DNA from: Escherichia phage T4
Length of the DNA stretch: 64,000 bases
Strand: one strand, 5' to 3'
Sequence record: OL964735.1
Position numbers and translations under genes: made by a program. Below, piece after piece: positions 8,802 to 18,741 of this stretch. Numbering within the stretch: position 1 is the first letter of the stretch; each line of letters begins with the position of its first letter. Below the pieces are notes generated by a model. That model searched no databases. It saw only the letters and a program-made list of their open reading frames with translations, and was not told the DNA's origin.

Positions 8802-10085
8802 ATGGCTAAAATCAACGAACTTCTGCGCGAATCAACCACAACGAATAGCAACTCAATCGGTCGCCCAAATCTCGTTGCTTTGACTCGCGCTACCACTAAA
8901 TTAATATATTCTGACATTGTAGCAACGCAAAGAACTAATCAACCTGTTGCTGCTTTTTATGGTATCAAATACCTTAACCCAGACAACGAATTTACATTTA
9001 AAACTGGTGCTACTTACGCTGGCGAAGCTGGATATGTAGACCGAGAACAAATCACAGAATTAACAGAAGAGTCTAAATTAACTCTCAATAAAGGCGATTT
9101 ATTCAAATATAATAATATCGTTTATAAAGTATTAGAAGATACTCCATTTGCTACTATCGAAGAAAGTGATTTAGAATTAGCTCTTCAGATTGCAATCGTT
9201 CTTTTAAAGGTTCGTCTATTTTCTGACGCAGCGTCAACAAGCAAATTTGAAAGCTCTGATAGTGAAATTGCGGATGCTAGATTCCAGATTAATAAATGGC
9301 AAACTGCAGTTAAATCTCGTAAACTTAAAACTGGCATCACAGTTGAATTAGCGCAAGATTTAGAAGCAAATGGATTCGATGCTCCTAATTTCTTGGAAGA
9401 TTTGCTTGCAACTGAAATGGCAGATGAAATCAATAAAGACATTCTGCAGTCTTTGATTACAGTGTCAAAACGCTATAAAGTTACAGGAATTACTGATAGT
9501 GGATTCATCGATTTGAGTTATGCATCTGCTCCTGAAGCTGGTCGTTCATTATACCGAATGGTATGTGAAATGGTTTCGCATATCCAAAAAGAATCAACTT
9601 ATACAGCAACGTTCTGTGTTGCTTCAGCTCGTGCCGCTGCGATTCTTGCTGCATCAGGCTGGTTAAAACATAAACCAGAAGATGACAAATATCTTTCACA
9701 AAATGCCTACGGGTTCTTAGCTAATGGTTTACCGCTTTATTGCGATACTAACAGCCCATTAGATTATGTAATCGTTGGCGTAGTAGAAAATATCGGTGAA
9801 AAAGAAATTGTTGGATCAATTTTCTATGCTCCGTATACAGAAGGTCTCGACTTAGATGACCCTGAACATGTAGGTGCATTTAAAGTTGTTGTTGATCCAG
9901 AAAGCTTACAACCATCTATCGGTTTATTAGTTAGATATGCTTTATCAGCAAATCCTTATACTGTAGCAAAAGATGAAAAAGAAGCAAGAATAATTGACGG
10001 TGGAGACATGGATAAAATGGCAGGTCGTTCAGATTTGTCTGTTTTATTAGGTGTTAAGCTACCAAAAATTATCATTGATGAATAA
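8802..10085 (+). CDS. 24: capsid vertex protein (T4 gp24)
   Basis: 427-aa ORF, recognised gp24 sequence. Confidence 0.95.
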   Translation: MAKINELLRESTTTNSNSIGRPNLVALTRATTKLIYSDIVATQRTNQPVAAFYGIKYLNPDNEFTFKTGATYAGEAGYVDREQITELTEESKLTLNKGDLFKYNNIVYKVLEDTPFATIEESDLELALQIAIVLLKVRLFSDAASTSKFESSDSEIADARFQINKWQTAVKSRKLKTGITVELAQDLEANGFDAPNFLEDLLATEMADEINKDILQSLITVSKRYKVTGITDSGFIDLSYASAPEAGRSLYRMVCEMVSHIQKESTYTATFCVASARAAAILAASGWLKHKPEDDKYLSQNAYGFLANGLPLYCDTNSPLDYVIVGVVENIGEKEIVGSIFYAPYTEGLDLDDPEHVGAFKVVVDPESLQPSIGLLVRYALSANPYTVAKDEKEARIIDGGDMDKMAGRSDLSVLLGVKLPKIIIDE

Positions 10086-10090
10086 AACAA

Positions 10091-10112
10091 AGGGACCTTT
10101 CGGTCCCTTTTT
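10091..10112. terminator. bidirectional intrinsic terminator between gene 24 and rnlB
   Basis: AGGGACC-TTTC-GGTCCCT hairpin flanked by T-runs on both strands; convergent genes. Confidence 0.75.
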
Positions 10113-10114
10113 AT

Positions 10115-11119
10115 TTAACTTACCAACTCAATCCAAGCTGGACGAAGTACATCTTGTACCATTTTAACTAATTCCTTTTTAATCAAAGAAGGATTATCTG
10201 CTTGAGTTAGAGTAATACCTTCACGAGAAGTTTCTTCCAAAATATCTTGAACAGTTAGCCCCATCACCTTTCCAAAATCCTTTGGACCAATTTCGCCAAT
10301 TTTAGAAATAACGTTATTTACGCGGTTCAGTGTAACGTAACAAGCTAAAATTCCCACCAATTTGTTATCAGCTTCTGATAGCTCAACTTTAGCTTTAATA
10401 GGCTTATCAGACTTTTTCTTTTCACTAAATTTAGAGTTCTTGCATTTAATCGCTACACGATTTCCATTACGAAGCCAAGAAGGATAACAAGGTTTCAATA
10501 CATATCCTTCAGCAGTAAATACTTCGCCTTTTGCTTCGGCATTCCAAACGCATTTATTTGCATCAACTAATCCAGCATGGTCTACTGTAAAATTATAATC
10601 TTGGACGACAGAATCTAAATCATTTGGCAATTTAATAAGCTCTTCAAATTTACCGCGACCTAAAAGTGGAGCCATTTTAAATTTAAATGTATTACAGAAT
10701 GATTCCATCATATAATCATCTACATAAGTCACATCACCGCTTTCTGTAGTAACAATAATGTCAAATACATAAAAATCTTTATCACCATAATCAACATTCT
10801 TCTGAATGCCAGGTCCAGCGAATTCGCCAAAGACTTGATAAGATACAACCGCTGAGGTTTCCATAATATCTTGTACAGCTTTAATGGAATCAGCATAATT
10901 CTTCAAAATAATTTCATACCCAAAGAAATCTTCAGCAGGAAGAATCGGTCCAGTGCGTTTAGCGCAAGTCACTTTATCACGCTCAATAATCAATGAGAAA
11001 TTTGTGCCGTGAATCTTTTCACGAGCTACCCACTCCCCACCAGTCAATCCCAAGCTATAAAGTTTTTCAATAAATTTAGAGTTGTAATGATTTTCAAGAC
11101 TGCTATACTTTTTAAACAT
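10115..11119 (-). CDS. rnlB: RNA ligase 2
   Basis: 334-aa ORF; nucleotidyltransferase motif I lysine in EKIHGTNFS. Confidence 0.93.
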
Positions 11120-11128
11120 AATTAATCC

Positions 11129-11407
11129 TCAAAATGTAATTTCTAACCAATCACCATCACGCTGATCACTATTGACTTTAAAGCTGAATCCTTCTTTTCT
11201 CAGCCAATCACCAATTTCTTCTGTAATCAATTTATCACGAGCAATACAATAATAATTAAAATGTGTTTTACCTTGTTCAGCTGCTTTATTAGCAAGTTCT
11301 GAAAAATCTTTAATAAAACACTCTAGCTTAAACTGTTTACTTTTTAATGCTTTTTCGCGTAATTGATTAGCAAAAGATTCATTTTCATAAAGATCATACT
11401 GTTCCAT
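11129..11407 (-). CDS. hypothetical protein (T4 24.2 position)
   Basis: 92-aa ORF in conserved position. Confidence 0.7.
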   Translation of the reverse strand: MEQYDLYENESFANQLREKALKSKQFKLECFIKDFSELANKAAEQGKTHFNYYCIARDKLITEEIGDWLRKEGFSFKVNSDQRDGDWLEITF

Positions 11408-11609
11408 TTTTCACCTTTTTATTGATATGTCTTTTTCTATAGACAACTTTTTCTCGAGTTTCAAATTTATTCTTAGCAGTCATAGCTCGAGCCCATAATA
11501 CAGCCACTTCTTTTGCCTGTAAGTTTAATTCACGAGCAATTTCAATGAATGACTTTCCAGACTCATGAAGAGTAAACACCACAACCTCAGTTCTCATAAT
11601 CAATCTCAT
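11394..11609 (-). CDS. hypothetical small protein, possible HTH (T4 24.3 position)
   Basis: 71-aa ORF overlapping the next ORF by 14 nt. Confidence 0.65.
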   Translation of the reverse strand: MRLIMRTEVVVFTLHESGKSFIEIARELNLQAKEVAVLWARAMTAKNKFETREKVVYRKRHINKKVKNGTV

Positions 11610-11677
11610 GTTATCGAGTTGGTGCCATTATATACATCATTTTCTGATTGTGTTTTGTGTGCTTTCAAAATGAAGAA

Positions 11678-11693
11678 AGGGGCCGAAGCCCCT
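11678..11693 (-). terminator. intrinsic terminator after hoc
   Basis: GGGGC-TTCG-GCCCC hairpin on minus strand followed by TTTCTTCATTTT. Confidence 0.6.
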
Positions 11694-11698
11694 TATGA

Positions 11699-12829
11699 TT
11701 ATGGATAGGTATAGATGATACCAGTTTCTAAAGCAGTTTTATGAATGATGTATCCATTACGCGATTCTTGGACATCAACTTCTGGATAGTCTTTCATCAT
11801 CTTCTGGAGAGTGTAACGATGCAGGTAATATTTACTATCTGGGTCGTCAGTTTTCCAATCTTTACCTTCTTCGGTCATTTTTTGGATTTCATCCATAACC
11901 CACCAACCGCACCAGATGTAAGCTGAGCTACGGTGTGGAAGAGGATGAACATAAGGTAATTCACCTTCTGGTTCTGGAGCAACTTTAGCCGTGACTGTTA
12001 CATTACCAGTTTTGGTAACGGTTACAGGGTTATAATCTGCAGCAGTAACAGTTGCAGTAACTTCAATAGTTTGACTTCCAACAGATGAGGTATCGACAGT
12101 ATATACGTTAGTTGACCCTTCTACAGGAGAAGAATCTTTCTTCCATGAGTAAGTAATTTGTGCTTCTTCTGGAGCACCCGTAACATTAGCCGTAAATGTA
12201 GCCGAAGCATCTTGCTGAACATTAATAGAAGGAGGAGTCAATGTAACCTGTGGATTCATTGTCTTCTTATTAACCGTTAATGATACTTCATTAGAAGTAA
12301 CGCTTAGTGCATCATAATCTGTCGCGGTTACTTGGGCTACGCATTTAATTCTTTTTACTCCACTTGTAGTTGGAGTATAGCTAAATGTAGAGTTAGTTTC
12401 TCCACCAACTTGTGAATCATCTACATACCACTGATACGTAGCAGATGCTCCATCAGGTTGAGAAGCTAAGGCAGCAGTAAATTGAACTGGGGTTCCAATC
12501 ACTCCAGCCGCAGGACTAGCAGGAGTTACGGCTAAGGTAGTCGTCTGTGTCTTATTTTTAACTGTGATAGTTGTTGTCGCTTCAGCCGTTTCCGGGCCTC
12601 CTTCAGAAAGTGTATTTGTTGCAACTACTTTAATAGTCTTTTGACCGGCAGGTCCTTTTAGTACATAACTAAAAGTTGCTTCAGCTCCATCTTGTGGAAC
12701 ATTATCTACGCTCCAAGCATATGTAATAGTTCCGCCTCCAGTTTGACCACTGGGTGTAGCAGTAAACTGCTTAGTTTCATCAATAACCCCTGTAGGTGTT
12801 TTAGGAGTTATATCAACTGTAAAAGTCAT
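11699..12829 (-). CDS. hoc: highly antigenic outer capsid protein Hoc (Ig-like repeats)
   Basis: 376-aa ORF with repeated T/V-rich Ig-like segments. Confidence 0.93.
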   Translation of the reverse strand: MTFTVDITPKTPTGVIDETKQFTATPSGQTGGGTITYAWSVDNVPQDGAEATFSYVLKGPAGQKTIKVVATNTLSEGGPETAEATTTITVKNKTQTTTLAVTPASPAAGVIGTPVQFTAALASQPDGASATYQWYVDDSQVGGETNSTFSYTPTTSGVKRIKCVAQVTATDYDALSVTSNEVSLTVNKKTMNPQVTLTPPSINVQQDASATFTANVTGAPEEAQITYSWKKDSSPVEGSTNVYTVDTSSVGSQTIEVTATVTAADYNPVTVTKTGNVTVTAKVAPEPEGELPYVHPLPHRSSAYIWCGWWVMDEIQKMTEEGKDWKTDDPDSKYYLHRYTLQKMMKDYPEVDVQESRNGYIIHKTALETGIIYTYP

Positions 12830-12838
12830 AAGTTATCC

Positions 12839-13519
12839 TTATTTTAATGTTACGAAAGAAGAGTTGCGTGTTTCACGAATTAAAACTGATCCATCGCGAT
12901 TAATGTAATAAATTAAGCTAAATAAAGTTTGGTGTGCTGACGCATGTTCAAAACTAGTTGGGTGAGATTTCCAATCAGGAGTTTCAGCAATCCATTGATA
13001 AATCCACCAAGGAACAGTACAGAATCCTGGATTTTTTCCAATCAGTTGAAGATTCGGACTAAAGTTTTCCGGAAGAGTAAATACAGACGGCTTTTCAGAT
13101 TCAATAATCTCAGCTACAGCCTGTTCGAATTTTTCTTCAACAAAAGGAGTATCTTCAATCAAAACATCGGTATTTTCAGGAATTTTATCCGTTTCTACTA
13201 CTTCAATTTTAATGTCAGATTTAATCGGAGAATCAATCAGAAGTGCTGCTTCTGGATTGACTTCTTCATCGTCATATTTTAATCCCTCTGCGGCATCAGC
13301 AGCATCAATTAAGTCTTTAATAGATAACCCATCAGTCTCTGGCATAGGTTCACTAGCGAGCTTCTGGAGGGCTTCTTCAATATCAACAACGATATTATCA
13401 AAAGATTTATTCTTTTTGACCTTTATACCAAACTGTTCAGCATATTCAGCTAATTTAGCTTTAGCTTCTTTGTTATCATCAAGAGCCTTCAGCTCTGCAA
13501 TATAATCTTTATCTATCAT
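12839..13519 (-). CDS. inh: inhibitor of prohead protease (Inh)
   Basis: 226-aa ORF, recognised by position and sequence. Confidence 0.85.
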   Translation of the reverse strand: MIDKDYIAELKALDDNKEAKAKLAEYAEQFGIKVKKNKSFDNIVVDIEEALQKLASEPMPETDGLSIKDLIDAADAAEGLKYDDEEVNPEAALLIDSPIKSDIKIEVVETDKIPENTDVLIEDTPFVEEKFEQAVAEIIESEKPSVFTLPENFSPNLQLIGKNPGFCTVPWWIYQWIAETPDWKSHPTSFEHASAHQTLFSLIYYINRDGSVLIRETRNSSFVTLK

Positions 13520-13532
13520 AATATTTCCTCAG

Positions 13533-13540
13533 TATAAATA
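13533..13540 (+). promoter_or_regulatory. late promoter TATAAATA upstream of segE
   Basis: exact motif 28 nt upstream of segE ATG. Confidence 0.55.
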
Positions 13541-13568
13541 TAGATATATTTATTACTCGGAAAATAGT

Positions 13569-14186
13569 ATGTACCACTTTGTATATGAAACAACAAATCT
13601 AATAAATGGTAAAAAGTATATAGGAAAGCACTCTACTGATGACTTGAATGATGGTTACCTTGGTTCCGGTAAGGCAATTCAGCAGGCTATAAAGAAATAT
13701 GGTGAAAACAATTTCTCTAGAACAATACTAAAAGAGTTTAAAACTTCCGAAGAAGCGTACATGTATGAAGAAGAAATTATAACTCCTGAACTAATAAAAA
13801 GCAAAAATTATTATAATATGAAACCTGGTGGAATTGGTGGAATTGTTATGACTACAGATGTTATAGCAAAGATGAAAGAATCTTCCGCTAAAAGATTTGA
13901 AAACTCACCGGGCACGGTATTAGGTAAAACTTGTTATACTAATGGAACTAAAAATATTTTTATTAAACCTGGAGAACTTGTTCCAGAAGGATTTGTAAAA
14001 GGGATGGTTCATCCTAATAGAAAGTCCAGAAAAGGATGTAAAGTCAAACCGACTACCACAGGAACTTTTTGGGTCAATAATGGCGCAATAAATAAATTAA
14101 TACAACCAGACGGTATTATTCCCGACGGATTTATTAAAGGTCGTCTCATGAAAAGAGATTCTAAAGGCAAATTTAGTAAGGCATAA
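13569..14186 (+). CDS. segE: GIY-YIG homing endonuclease SegE
   Basis: 205-aa ORF; N-terminal MYHFVYETTNLINGKKYIGK GIY-YIG motif. Confidence 0.88.
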   Translation: MYHFVYETTNLINGKKYIGKHSTDDLNDGYLGSGKAIQQAIKKYGENNFSRTILKEFKTSEEAYMYEEEIITPELIKSKNYYNMKPGGIGGIVMTTDVIAKMKESSAKRFENSPGTVLGKTCYTNGTKNIFIKPGELVPEGFVKGMVHPNRKSRKGCKVKPTTTGTFWVNNGAINKLIQPDGIIPDGFIKGRLMKRDSKGKFSKA

Positions 14187-14188
14187 TT

Positions 14189-15697
14189 ATGGATATTAAA
14201 GTACATTTTCACGACTTCAGTCATGTACGCATCGATTGTGAAGAGAGCACGTTCCACGAATTAAGAGATTTCTTTTCGTTTGAGGCCGATGGATATAGAT
14301 TTAATCCTCGCTTCAGATATGGCAACTGGGATGGACGAATCCGTCTTTTAGATTATAATCGTCTTCTTCCATTCGGCTTAGTCGGGCAAATTAAAAAATT
14401 CTGTGATAATTTTGGCTATAAAGCCTGGATTGACCCACAAATTAACGAAAAAGAAGAATTATCAAGAAAAGATTTTGATGAATGGCTTTCTAAATTAGAA
14501 ATCTATTCAGGAAATAAAAGAATTGAACCGCACTGGTATCAAAAAGATGCAGTGTTCGAAGGATTAGTTAATCGTCGTAGAATTCTTAATCTTCCAACAT
14601 CTGCAGGTAAATCTTTAATTCAAGCTTTGCTTGCGCGATATTATTTGGAAAATTATGAAGGTAAAATTCTTATCATTGTTCCAACAACTGCTCTGACAAC
14701 TCAGATGGCTGATGACTTCGTCGACTATCGTTTATTCAGCCATGCAATGATAAAGAAAATTGGTGGCGGAGCATCAAAAGATGATAAATATAAAAATGAT
14801 GCACCAGTCGTTGTTGGTACATGGCAAACTGTAGTAAAACAACCGAAAGAATGGTTCTCACAGTTTGGAATGATGATGAATGATGAATGCCATCTTGCTA
14901 CAGGAAAAAGTATTTCATCTATCATATCAGGTTTAAATAACTGCATGTTCAAATTCGGTTTGTCTGGTTCATTACGTGATGGCAAAGCCAATATCATGCA
15001 GTATGTTGGAATGTTTGGTGAAATATTTAAACCAGTAACGACTTCTAAATTAATGGAAGATGGACAAGTAACTGAGCTAAAAATTAATAGTATTTTTCTT
15101 CGCTATCCCGATGAGTTCACTACTAAATTAAAGGGAAAAACTTACCAAGAAGAAATAAAAATTATTACTGGGCTTAGTAAAAGAAATAAATGGATCGCTA
15201 AATTAGCTATTAAGCTTGCGCAAAAAGATGAAAACGCTTTTGTCATGTTTAAACATGTATCGCATGGTAAAGCTATTTTCGATTTAATTAAAAATGAATA
15301 CGATAAAGTTTATTACGTATCAGGGGAAGTTGATACCGAAACCCGCAATATAATGAAAACCTTAGCTGAAAATGGTAAAGGAATAATTATAGTAGCTAGT
15401 TATGGTGTATTTTCTACTGGTATTTCAGTTAAAAATCTGCATCACGTTGTTTTAGCGCACGGTGTTAAATCAAAAATCATTGTATTACAAACAATCGGTC
15501 GTGTATTACGTAAGCATGGTTCTAAGACAATAGCAACAGTCTGGGACCTCATAGATGACGCAGGCGTCAAGCCAAAATCTGCTAATACGAAAAAGAAATA
15601 TGTTCATTTGAACTATCTTTTAAAACACGGCATTGATCGTATTCAGCGCTACGCAGATGAAAAATTTAATTACGTAATGAAAACAGTTAATTTATAA
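14189..15697 (+). CDS. uvsW: UvsW RNA-DNA and DNA helicase
   Basis: 502-aa ORF; Walker A PTSAGKS and DECH box. Confidence 0.93.
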   Translation: MDIKVHFHDFSHVRIDCEESTFHELRDFFSFEADGYRFNPRFRYGNWDGRIRLLDYNRLLPFGLVGQIKKFCDNFGYKAWIDPQINEKEELSRKDFDEWLSKLEIYSGNKRIEPHWYQKDAVFEGLVNRRRILNLPTSAGKSLIQALLARYYLENYEGKILIIVPTTALTTQMADDFVDYRLFSHAMIKKIGGGASKDDKYKNDAPVVVGTWQTVVKQPKEWFSQFGMMMNDECHLATGKSISSIISGLNNCMFKFGLSGSLRDGKANIMQYVGMFGEIFKPVTTSKLMEDGQVTELKINSIFLRYPDEFTTKLKGKTYQEEIKIITGLSKRNKWIAKLAIKLAQKDENAFVMFKHVSHGKAIFDLIKNEYDKVYYVSGEVDTETRNIMKTLAENGKGIIIVASYGVFSTGISVKNLHHVVLAHGVKSKIIVLQTIGRVLRKHGSKTIATVWDLIDDAGVKPKSANTKKKYVHLNYLLKHGIDRIQRYADEKFNYVMKTVNL

Positions 15698-15712
15698 GGG
15701 CTTCGGCCCTTT
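15697..15712 (+). terminator. UUCG-tetraloop hairpin at uvsW stop
   Basis: AGGGC-TTCG-GCCCT followed by TT; overlaps RBS region of next ORF. Confidence 0.5.
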
Positions 15713-15722
15713 GGAGAAAAAG

Positions 15723-15953
15723 ATGTTACTAGAATTTAAACAATTTCTTTATGAAGCTTCTATTGATGAATTTATGGGTAAAATTGCCTCTTGTCAAACA
15801 TTAGAAGGTTTAGAAGAACTTGAAGCTTATTATAAGAAAAGAGTCAAAGAAACTGAATTAAAAGATACTGATGACATCTCTGTGAGAGATGCTTTGGCAG
15901 GAAAAAGAGCTGAATTAGAAGATTCAGACGATGAAGTAGAAGAAAGCTTTTAA
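15723..15953 (+). CDS. hypothetical acidic protein (T4 uvsW.1 position)
   Basis: track starts at TTG 15711; ATG 15723 preceded by GGAG gives 76 aa. Confidence 0.75.
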   Translation: MLLEFKQFLYEASIDEFMGKIASCQTLEGLEELEAYYKKRVKETELKDTDDISVRDALAGKRAELEDSDDEVEESF

Positions 15954-16008
15954 ATTAAAAAAGGCCCAACCAAAAAGGAAGGGCCAAAACTATAGACTAA
16001 AGGTCACA

Positions 16009-16176
16009 CTATAGCAAAAGTTGTGTTTCATTTAATTGTTCTTCCGAACTTTCTGAAACTGGTAGTTCTTTAATGTAATTATAGCAAGGCCCAGGATGTA
16101 CAGGACCTTTGTCTGTTTCAACAACCAATGCAGAATCGATTGGAGTTTTACAGACAACACAAATCTTATCTGACAT
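16009..16176 (-). CDS. hypothetical 55-aa CxxC protein (T4 uvsY.-2 position)
   Basis: ORF below the track's 60-aa cutoff; GAGGAG RBS upstream of ATG; CVVC and PGPC motifs. Confidence 0.55.
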   Translation of the reverse strand: MSDKICVVCKTPIDSALVVETDKGPVHPGPCYNYIKELPVSESSEEQLNETQLLL

Positions 16177-16202
16177 GATTGTCTCCTCTGAATTATATCT
16201 AT

Positions 16203-16427
16203 TTATACAACTCTCATATGCATATCAATGCCCATATCTTTAGAATAAAAATATTCATCAAGATATCCGGCAAATTTTCCTTTAATATAAAGGACATCTT
16301 CACCACACGGGTGGTCGGCCAGGATACGAATATCCTGACGCTTAAGATTATGCTTTTTCATTAAGAATTGAATTTCCGTTTCAAATTCTTCTTCATAATT
16401 AAAAGCATCATCAATGCTATATCTCAT
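16203..16427 (-). CDS. hypothetical protein (T4 uvsY.-1 position)
   Basis: 74-aa ORF. Confidence 0.65.
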   Translation of the reverse strand: MRYSIDDAFNYEEEFETEIQFLMKKHNLKRQDIRILADHPCGEDVLYIKGKFAGYLDEYFYSKDMGIDMHMRVV

Positions 16428-16840
16428 TATTTTCCAGCCTCAAATGCTCGCATGTCTTGAATATGCTTAATAGCAAATCCACGTGATTTAATAGCATCAA
16501 GAGCTCCGCTACAGAAATCTAATAAAATCCCCCAATACTGCAACGAGGTATCAACCTTTAAAACATCCTTATCCGCTGATAGAACTGTCTTCATTTCTGA
16601 TTTCTCGTAACGATCCATACTAAATTCATCACCATCTCCTCGTCCCGAGTAGTAGTCTAATCTAGCTTTAAGAGCAACTTTTTTCTGTGCTTCAATTCTA
16701 AGCATTTCCTTTTTAATACTTGAATGCTTATTAAGCCATTTACTATATAACATCACATTATTAGCTGCTTCATACTGTAATTTAGTCGAATCTATAAACA
16801 CATCTTTCTTCAATTCTTCTTGAAGATCTTCTAATCTCAT
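16427..16840 (-). CDS. uvsY: recombination mediator UvsY
   Basis: 137-aa ORF, recognised sequence. Confidence 0.93.
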   Translation of the reverse strand: MRLEDLQEELKKDVFIDSTKLQYEAANNVMLYSKWLNKHSSIKKEMLRIEAQKKVALKARLDYYSGRGDGDEFSMDRYEKSEMKTVLSADKDVLKVDTSLQYWGILLDFCSGALDAIKSRGFAIKHIQDMRAFEAGK

Positions 16841-16888
16841 ATTGTTCTCTATTCAATTGTTATTGGTTGTTATTGGATGGACTTAGAT

Positions 16889-16918
16889 TCATTATACCAC
16901 GTTTTAACGTGAAGCATT
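16889..16918 (-). promoter_or_regulatory. middle (MotA-dependent) promoter for uvsY
   Basis: minus strand TGCTTCA MotA box, 13-nt spacer, TATAAT -10; about 50 nt upstream of uvsY ATG. Confidence 0.65.
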
Positions 16919-17315
16919 ATACTCTATTACTGGAAGCCAGCTGCAGTTTTATCTGCTCAATATCATCAGGATTATCGATGACCGAAAAGCGTATTTCTAC
17001 TATCAGAGTATAATCGTCATAAACGGGTATCACATTAACTGCTAATTTATCAATACGTGGCTCATAGTTTCTTACTGCGCTTTCGATATTGCGTTCAACC
17101 GTGTCAGCAGTAAGAGGAGTCATATTTTCAAAAAGCTGGTCTGATAAATCACATCCAAATTCAGGGTCAAACGGTCTTGAACCTTTTCTTGTTGTAATAA
17201 TTCCCAAAAGACTGTTTTTAATTGACCTTAATCCAAGCGATCTGGAAACGTCTTTGTTCCAATCCATTTTCATTTCCGGGTCAATATCAGAATAAAGCTT
17301 ATTAATATTTGCCAT
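16917..17315 (-). CDS. 25: baseplate wedge protein (T4 gp25)
   Basis: 132-aa ORF, recognised sequence. Confidence 0.93.
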   Translation of the reverse strand: MANINKLYSDIDPEMKMDWNKDVSRSLGLRSIKNSLLGIITTRKGSRPFDPEFGCDLSDQLFENMTPLTADTVERNIESAVRNYEPRIDKLAVNVIPVYDDYTLIVEIRFSVIDNPDDIEQIKLQLASSNRV

Positions 17316-17941
17316 TATAGTAACTCAAAGAACTCTTTGAGGCCTCTTATTACGTGAGCATGGGTTTTTCCACACTCTGGACACTTAATTGGAACAGCCA
17401 AATAAACGGTAGGCTTTAAAAGCATATCTTTTATAGCTACAATATCTGACTCTGTGATGATAGAATATAAATCTTCTAGTTCCTTTTCATTTAAGTCTTC
17501 AACTGGAATGCTTTCCCCGTTAGCATGAATCGTTTCTATACATGATACTATCATGTGGGCTATATTTTTATCATCAAAAATTTTAGGGTATCGGAATTTA
17601 ATTTTAATGTCACCTAGTGTATACCAGAGGTCTTCTGGTGCATCTATTTGTGTATGTAATAGATTTATATGGGTTGGTATTTCAGTTCCACAGGTGCACT
17701 TCCAGGAGTTTTCGTGATTAACTTCACCGAGAGAATGTGCCCATAAATGAATCAACAATAGTTCTGATTCTTGGCGGTTTAAATCTTTTGCATTTGTGCA
17801 GTCTTTGATTAGCTTTTTAACAATTACTTCTACGGAACCATTATTTTTGGCAGTAATAAGTTCTAGATATTCTTTAAGCGTGAATGCGCGACAATTGATT
17901 ATTTTAGAACCAACTCTCACATCAAATTTGTATTCATACAT
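17315..17941 (-). CDS. 26: baseplate hub protein (T4 gp26)
   Basis: 208-aa ORF; stop overlaps gene 25 start. Confidence 0.9.
17316..17347 (-). promoter_or_regulatory. structured translation initiation region of gene 25 (hairpin between SD and AUG)
   Basis: minus strand GAGG is about 27 nt from the AUG, with a 7-bp hairpin CTCAAAG-AGTT-CTTTGAG in between. Confidence 0.6.
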
Positions 17942-17962: not shown

Positions 17963-17970
17963 TATTTATA
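17963..17970 (-). promoter_or_regulatory. late promoter TATAAATA for gene 26
   Basis: part of palindrome TATTTATAAATA at 17963-17974. Confidence 0.6.
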
Positions 17971-17974
17971 AATA
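17967..17974 (+). promoter_or_regulatory. late promoter TATAAATA for gene 51
   Basis: part of palindrome TATTTATAAATA; 17 nt upstream of gene 51 ATG. Confidence 0.65.
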
Positions 17975-17991: not shown

Positions 17992-18741
17992 ATGGCAAAC
18001 ATTATTCGTTGTAAATTACCAGATGGTGTTCATCGTTTTAAACCATTTACGGTAGAAGATTATCGAGATTTTTTGTTAGTTCGAAACGATATAGAACATC
18101 GGTCACCACAAGAACAAAAAGAAATAATTACTGATTTAATTGATGATTATTTTGGAGACTATCCGAAGACTTGGCAACCATTTATATTTTTGCAGGTATT
18201 TGTAGGGTCAATAGGTAAAACTAAAGTACCGGTCACATTTATATGTCCAAAATGTAAAAAAGAAAAGACAGTTCCATTTGAAATATATCAAAAAGAATTA
18301 AAGGAACCTGTTTTTGATGTAGCTAATGTTAAAATTAAATTAAAGTTTCCTTCTGAGTTTTATGAAAATAAAGCAAAGATGATTACTGAAAATATTCATT
18401 CTGTTCAAGTAGATGAAATATGGTATGATTGGAAGGAAATTAGCGAGTCCAGTCAAATAGAACTAGTTGACGCCATCGAGATAGAAACATTAGAAAAAAT
18501 TCTCGATGCAATGAATCCTATTAATTTAACTCTACACATGTCATGCTGTAATAAGTACATTAAAAAATACACTGATATAGTAGACGTGTTTAAGCTATTA
18601 GTTAACCCAGATGAGATATTTACTTTTTATCAAATTAATCACACACTCGTAAAAAGTAATTATAGCTTAAATTCAATAATGAAAATGATTCCTGCCGAGC
18701 GCGGATTCGTATTAAAACTGATTGAGAAGGATAAACAATAA
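17992..18741 (+). CDS. 51: baseplate hub assembly catalyst (T4 gp51)
   Basis: 249-aa ORF. Confidence 0.9.

Follow-up and report, generated by a model that had tools for sequence, protein, structure and literature searches.

The short gap between inh and the GIY-YIG gene that precedes uvsW in the phage T4 genome holds a late-promoter motif, and the question raised by this locus is whether that promoter came with the mobile gene or was already in place when the gene arrived. The locus was analysed within a stretch of 64,000 nucleotides of T4 DNA (OL964735.1; the window, to which all coordinates refer unless another record is named) and was compared with the same region of phages that carry or lack the gene. 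The outcome is a correction of detail, in that the late promoter appears to belong to the locus, and specifically to uvsW, and not to the mobile gene. The comparative evidence for this refinement is clear; the refinement itself is minor and may already have been published. The segE gene, its activity, its uvsW target, the presence of a promoter upstream, and its late expression are all already known in the literature.

The segE gene and the late-promoter motif before it

The window is phage T4, and positions 13400-14300 have 100% DNA identity with twelve T4-type records, including AF158101.6 and NC_000866.4. The segE coding sequence is located at 13569..14186 on the + strand (ATG start, stop codon included; 205 aa) and corresponds to T4 CDS 112057..112674, which is annotated as 'SegE homing endonuclease, GIY-YIG family' (AAD42658.1). 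Its divergent neighbour is inh (hoc.1), at 12839..13519 on the - strand, which is separated from the segE ATG by a gap of 49 bp. On the other side, the helicase gene uvsW is located at 14189..15697 on the + strand, with its ATG 2 nt after the segE stop codon. The initial annotation described a GIY-YIG ORF of 205 aa between divergent inh and uvsW, and this was confirmed by the ORF list, Pfam, and PHROG 314. Its label, 'segE-like', named the correct homing endonuclease family but fell short in one respect: because the window is T4 itself, with 100% DNA identity and the same CDS coordinates, the gene is segE and not merely a relative. The DNA, the CDS, and the neighbours inh (hoc.1) and uvsW were the same as those of the known T4 SegE (UniProt P18060; Kadyrov et al. 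1994, 1997), and no difference was found.

The SegE protein was matched by the Pfam model PF19835 (SegE_GIY-YIG) with 36.5 bits (cut-off 25) and by PHROG 314, 'homing endonuclease', with E = 2.6e-43; the generic GIY-YIG model PF01541 gave 21.6 bits, 1 bit short of its cut-off of 22.6. The N-terminal GIY-YIG domain is recognizable as VY-x10-YIG in residues 5-19. Comparison with solved structures by sequence gave chance-level matches only, and I-TevI was not among them. The C-terminal half of the protein contains a motif, (C/F)(Y/W)xNNG/TNG...N..I.P....P(E/D)GF(V/I)KG, in two copies at residues 116-155 and 161-200 (window 13914-14033 and 14049-14168). The motif is matched by no Pfam family and is presumably the DNA-binding module.

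On the + strand, positions 13533-13540 match the T4 late promoter -10 element TATAAATA exactly; this octamer and the segE ATG are separated by 28 nt, as had been stated at the outset for the short gap after inh. Exact copies of TATAAATA are enriched 2-fold in the window: there are 19 of them, dinucleotide shuffles contained 9.3 +/- 3.0, and a count of 19 was reached in none of 100 shuffles. Arithmetic from the shuffle rate gives a chance of approximately 0.3% that an exact copy falls on one given strand of the 49-bp spacer. Twelve of the 19 sites are located 14-34 nt upstream of a same-strand ORF (ORFs of at least 80 aa were considered), and the 28-nt spacing at segE is in line with the 27-28 nt observed at three other sites in the window. 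The motif upstream of segE is thus more than a chance occurrence. Variants of TATAAATA with one mismatch were at chance level in the window (196 observed, 191 expected) and therefore, by count alone, only the exact motif carries weight.

The segE site shares with T4 late promoters (TATAAATA; gp55/gp33/gp45-dependent) the exact octamer, the usual distance to the gene, and the late timing of RNA and protein, and no difference from them was found. It has the sequence of a T4 late promoter, with an exact -10 octamer, no -35 element, and neither sigma-70-like sites nor MotA boxes nearby. The geometry of T4 late promoters places the transcript start a few bases downstream of the -10 element, and the predicted start at segE is accordingly near 13546. 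No promoter is annotated at segE in the T4 GenBank records AF158101.6, MT984581.1, and HM137666.1.

The late expression of segE that had been proposed initially agrees with published RNA-seq and proteomics data, in which segE, uvsW, and inh are all classed as 'late-RNA_late-Protein' (PMC9697503 supplementary tables), a class that describes timing and not the start site. By RNA-seq, segE is among only 38 genes classed as late. The SegE protein signal is zero at 0, 1, 3, 5, and 8 min, first appears at 12 min, and increases at 20 and 30 min in parallel with UvsW (PMC9697503). With respect to timing, these data run counter to the refuting case named at the outset, in which no late transcript would initiate here. 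An early or middle promoter for segE was considered and rejected: no sigma-70-like site was found on the + strand from 12700 to the uvsW start, and no MotA box was found in 9944-16910. In a 2010 review of T4 mobile elements, segE is described as transcribed from a promoter in the non-coding DNA upstream of its ORF, which is grouped with 'endonuclease-specific' promoters, and the promoters of these endonucleases are said to be middle or late, never early (PMC2988022). It is reasonable to suppose that late timing places cleavage at a stage when co-infecting genomes are replicating and recombining, and this matches the remark on middle and late promoters in that review.

Occupied and empty alleles of the locus

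The region was matched by 565 phage records, of which 158 carry segE. Most of the remaining records gave a two-piece match with 59% query coverage and a span 616 bp shorter. Approximately 340 of the segE-less records are Tequatrovirus, a figure obtained by leaving out records with 60-80% identity. Six empty alleles (T2, fPS-90, RB51, UFV09, HY01, and IME339) were examined and aligned with four genomes that carry segE (T4, RB14, EP01, and PhiZZ30). In all six empty alleles the spacer between inh and uvsW is 50 bp and contains TATAAATA 29 nt before the uvsW ATG; the record of fPS-90 annotates this octamer as a 'predicted late promoter'. All six match T4 base for base from within inh, across TATAAATA, as far as window position 13556 (...TATAAATATAGATATATTTATTAC), and divergence starts at 13557.

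Homology between occupied and empty alleles resumes at ATTAAAGT, position 14195. The segE cassette therefore spans approximately 13557-14194 on the + strand and replaces 22 bp of the empty allele (ATGGTATTTAGACATGACTGAC). Among related genomes segE is thus present or absent at one defined position flanked by conserved genes, a polymorphism typical of homing endonuclease genes, and each of the six empty alleles has precise junctions. Besides the ribosome-binding region and ORF of segE, the cassette carries at its 3' end a ribosome-binding site, an ATG, and a second codon that are new to uvsW. T4 UvsW therefore begins with MDIK..., compared with MTDIK... in T2.

The octamer is also present in other genera. 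In a Klebsiella Jiaodavirus no endonuclease gene is present at this position, and TATAAATA is located 29 nt before the uvsW GTG. The Gelderlandvirus Salmonella phage NP4 has a SegE homologue with 64% protein identity in the same slot, behind the same octamer (piece coordinates 848-1520), and the Krischvirus Escherichia phage AV108 has a seg-like protein with 37% identity in the same slot, again behind the same octamer (piece coordinates 843-1630). The endonuclease stop codons of NP4 and AV108 are 2-4 nt before the uvsW start. In a five-way alignment covering the four genera Tequatrovirus, Jiaodavirus, Gelderlandvirus, and Krischvirus, the sole invariant islands of the spacer were TATAAATAT and TATTTAT; the octamer is exact in all four genera, and the neighbouring spacer varies. 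In all genomes examined, 28-38 nt separate the octamer from the + strand gene that follows first. The occurrence of SegE-family genes in the same slot of Gelderlandvirus and Krischvirus points to repeated or ancient colonisation.

Because the promoter is kept before uvsW in genomes that lack segE, it is older than the insertion and belongs to uvsW. On this comparison, segE is best read as a promoter-less insert that captured the resident late promoter of uvsW. The initial annotation had given segE 'its own late promoter': a late-promoter motif does precede segE, and the gene is expressed late, but the promoter is not segE's own, since the same promoter stands before uvsW in segE-less relatives and in a Jiaodavirus. 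Ownership by uvsW also fits the late promoter from which UvsW is reported to be expressed in PMC3016281, which cites Derr and Kreuzer 1990. In this sense segE is a further example of homing endonuclease genes that lodge in a host transcription unit and leave it undisturbed.

A further reading, put forward tentatively and with somewhat less than even confidence, is that at least three genera have segE-family genes settled at the same fixed position, downstream of the uvsW late promoter and ahead of the uvsW start codon, and that uvsW translation may now depend on the cassette, so that its loss would be harmful. Such dependence is possible because the ribosome-binding site and start codon of uvsW itself have been replaced, and translational coupling may add to it. 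The replacement can be followed by comparison in T4, where empty alleles exist. If the reading is true, precise loss of segE would damage a helicase of repair and replication control, which would act as a retention device. Retention of segG is attributed to an 'embedded promoter' device; for segE the dependence would instead operate via the translation signals of uvsW.

A promoter for the downstream gene has been described as embedded in segE (PMC2988022), and, if so, uvsW may depend on more than the upstream promoter. T4 uvsW could then be transcribed mainly from a separate promoter in the 3' part of segE, and segE and uvsW would not form a single operon. The only candidate is a copy of AATAAATA at 14087-14094, 94 nt before the uvsW ATG; the same octamer seems to serve inh on the other strand. 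However, octamers with one mismatch occur at chance frequency (196 versus 191 expected) and are uninformative by count. In addition, SegE and UvsW appear at the same time point, only 2 nt separate the segE stop from the uvsW start, and no terminator-like site was found between the two genes by a simple scan, which missed the hairpins at 15697-15710 and 15963-15985. An internal promoter would, moreover, add to read-through from 13533 and not replace it. An arrangement in which it is the main source of uvsW transcripts is considered unlikely, though not negligible.

The motif could also be a late promoter that is specific to the endonuclease and carried along by the segE cassette, as its position in non-coding DNA directly upstream of segE and the grouping of segE with 'endonuclease-specific' upstream promoters (PMC2988022) would suggest. 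This is quite improbable: the insertion junction at 13557 is downstream of the promoter, and in the six segE-less genomes the octamer, 29 nt before uvsW, is followed by the same 16 bp as in T4. The conservation of the promoter before uvsW in a Jiaodavirus, without an endonuclease, tells against a promoter of this kind and also against the view that the segE-less alleles are deletion derivatives that kept a cassette-borne promoter.

The diverged uvsW block and homing

Adjacent to the cassette, the 5' end of uvsW contains a diverged block linked to segE (14194..14324, + strand). Alignment of T4 with T2 in this interval showed 34 differences in 131 nt, comprising 20 synonymous codon changes and 5 conservative replacements. 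Genomes with and without segE differ at 5-10 positions per 30 nt for approximately 130 nt past the junction; beyond the block there are 0-1 differences per 30 nt in most genomes compared, and the left flank of the insertion is essentially identical in all of them. The T4 form of the block is present in four of the four genomes with segE, and the T2 form extends across the whole block in five of the six without it. The block is what would be expected as the footprint of a homing endonuclease with its target at the uvsW 5' end and a resistant carrier allele. Phage vB_EcoM-UFV09 (UFV09), which lacks segE, changes type in the region of uvsW codons ~20-45: roughly the initial 60-70 nt of the gene are T2-type, and the sequence after them is T4-type. 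This phage looks like a recombinant with a breakpoint within the diverged block.

Published work (PMC2330249, PMC2988022) reports that SegE cuts the hoc.1-uvsW region (5' end of uvsW) of phages RB30 and RB52 and that homing is nearly 100% efficient in T4 x RB30 crosses, with co-conversion of the flanks; segE is also listed as active and targeting uvsW (PMC2988022). The diverged block appears to span the region of this target in segE-less phages, and we infer that it overlaps the position of cleavage. It is presumably a cleavage-resistant allele carried with the cassette. The 1997 study by Kadyrov is said to have placed the SegE target at the uvsW 5' end, in the hoc.1-uvsW region of RB30, with T4 DNA reportedly cut less efficiently.

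Taken as a whole, the picture of a promoter-less segE behind the uvsW late promoter, late co-transcription of the two genes, and cleavage followed by repair that copies the cassette together with a resistant uvsW block is regarded as very probable. The analysis established which gene this is, that the motif is there, that the gene is polymorphic for presence and absence with exact junctions, that the promoter is conserved where segE is lacking, and that a diverged block is linked to segE; endonuclease activity, homing, the uvsW target, and the late timing of RNA and protein were taken from the literature. Late in infection, the T4-modified RNA polymerase (gp55/gp33, with the gp45 clamp on replicating DNA as activator) would start near 13546, and one late transcript would span segE, uvsW, and probably uvsW.1. 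SegE would be translated via its own ribosome-binding region on an unstructured 23-nt leader, and uvsW from the ribosome-binding site and ATG that the cassette carries at its 3' end. When a segE-less relative infects the same cell, SegE would cut the genome of that relative near the uvsW 5' end, and the phage recombination machinery would repair the cut, copying segE and the adjacent diverged uvsW block (14194-14324). The differences at 34 of 131 positions in the uvsW 5' end, most of them synonymous, would protect the T4 copy to a large extent. The exact transcript start, the co-transcription, and the protective role of the block are the steps that we infer. By adopting the late timing of a recombination helicase, segE would have its double-strand break fall when recombination-dependent replication is active.

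The locus resembles the intronless homing systems SegG (32.1) and SegF, in which a free-standing GIY-YIG gene adjoins a conserved gene that is cut in relatives without it, flanking markers are co-converted, and expression signals of the downstream host gene are located inside the endonuclease cassette (PMC2988022). It differs from segG in that the middle and late promoters of gene 32 are inside the segG ORF, whereas the host promoter at segE remains upstream of the cassette, from which uvsW receives only its ribosome-binding site and start codon. The cleavage sites of free-standing endonucleases are described as hundreds to thousands of bp away from the endonuclease genes (PMC2988022); the SegE target would be within approximately 130 bp of the insertion point, a distance that depends on the presumed target position.

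The td intron endonuclease I-TevI likewise belongs to the GIY-YIG family, has a late promoter immediately upstream, and is translated late (PMC2988022). Unlike segE, it is intron-encoded, and a hairpin hides its ribosome-binding site on early and middle transcripts. A hairpin hiding the segE ribosome-binding site in the late leader was rejected, since the folding energy of the leader (-7.9 kcal/mol, z = -0.17) indicated no more structure than in shuffles. I-TevI also represses its own late promoter via an operator that resembles its homing site, and segE shows no such likeness: in a comparison of the promoter and leader (13520-13600) with both strands of the T2 target region, no 20-mer matched at more than 13 of 20 positions and 97 of 100 shuffles did equally well, and autorepression of the I-TevI kind was rejected for segE.

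A probable divergent inh promoter and annotation of the region

A probable late promoter of inh, AATAAATA, which has one mismatch, is located at 13547..13554 on the - strand and is followed after 27 nt by the inh ATG (13519). In the + strand reading, the corresponding island is TATTTAT(T/A); it is invariant in the four genera and reads [A/T]ATAAATA on the - strand, where Jiaodavirus and Gelderlandvirus have an exact TATAAATA. PMC2988022 also mentions that inh has a late promoter upstream. The late promoters of inh and of segE/uvsW are thus arranged back to back, 6 bp apart (window 13533-13554). Their predicted starts cross (~13546 on the + strand, ~13541 on the - strand), so that the two open complexes are probably not formed at once, and competition between late transcription of inh and of segE/uvsW is a possibility.

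That TATAAATA is conserved for a role on the - strand, within the predicted inh 5' leader, with its + strand match coincidental and segE and uvsW reached by read-through, is scarcely credible: an inh start near 13541 (~6 nt downstream of the - strand AATAAATA) would indeed place the complement of 13533-13540 in the leader, and X14869 annotates only - strand promoters here, but the octamer is exact in four genera where adjacent leader bases vary, its spacing to the gene is 28-38 nt throughout, no other + strand promoter-like site was found for more than 800 nt upstream, in the ORF list the upstream DNA is antisense to - strand ORFs back to 10085, where a + strand ORF ends, segE and uvsW are strictly late, and UvsW is reported with a late promoter in PMC3016281.

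The 1990 hoc-region record X14869.1 contains two putative promoters, both on the - strand, of which one lies over window 13541-13571. The - strand 'put. promoter' at 2031-2061 of that record (window 13516-13546) extends over both the inh start codon and the + strand copy of TATAAATA. The strand given for this feature is doubtful, and either the assignment is wrong or the promoter was meant for ORF 3 (segE).

A second divergent pair of late promoters was observed at 17963-17974, where two exact copies of TATAAATA on opposite strands overlap by 4 bp between ORFs at 17315..17941 (- strand) and 17992..18741 (+ strand), which by gene order appear to be T4 genes 26 and 51. This pair is tighter than the inh/segE pair, in which the octamers are 6 bp apart.

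The window does not have the AF158101.6 version of the T4 sequence. The blastn alignment breaks near gene 24.3 (~11460-11490), with a 33-base register shift, and uvsW (502 aa) and uvsW.1 are separate ORFs in the window (15697-15953 region), compared with a fused uvsW of 587 aa in AF158101.6. The separate ORFs match the resequencing reported in PMC1524935. A GGGC-UUCG-GCCC tetraloop hairpin at 15697-15710 precedes the ribosome-binding site of uvsW.1, and its first base is the final base of the uvsW stop codon. After uvsW.1, a GGCCC...GGGCC hairpin at 15963-15985 has a T-run on the - strand only; it matches a terminator that Nolan et al. 2006 predicted to be bidirectional.
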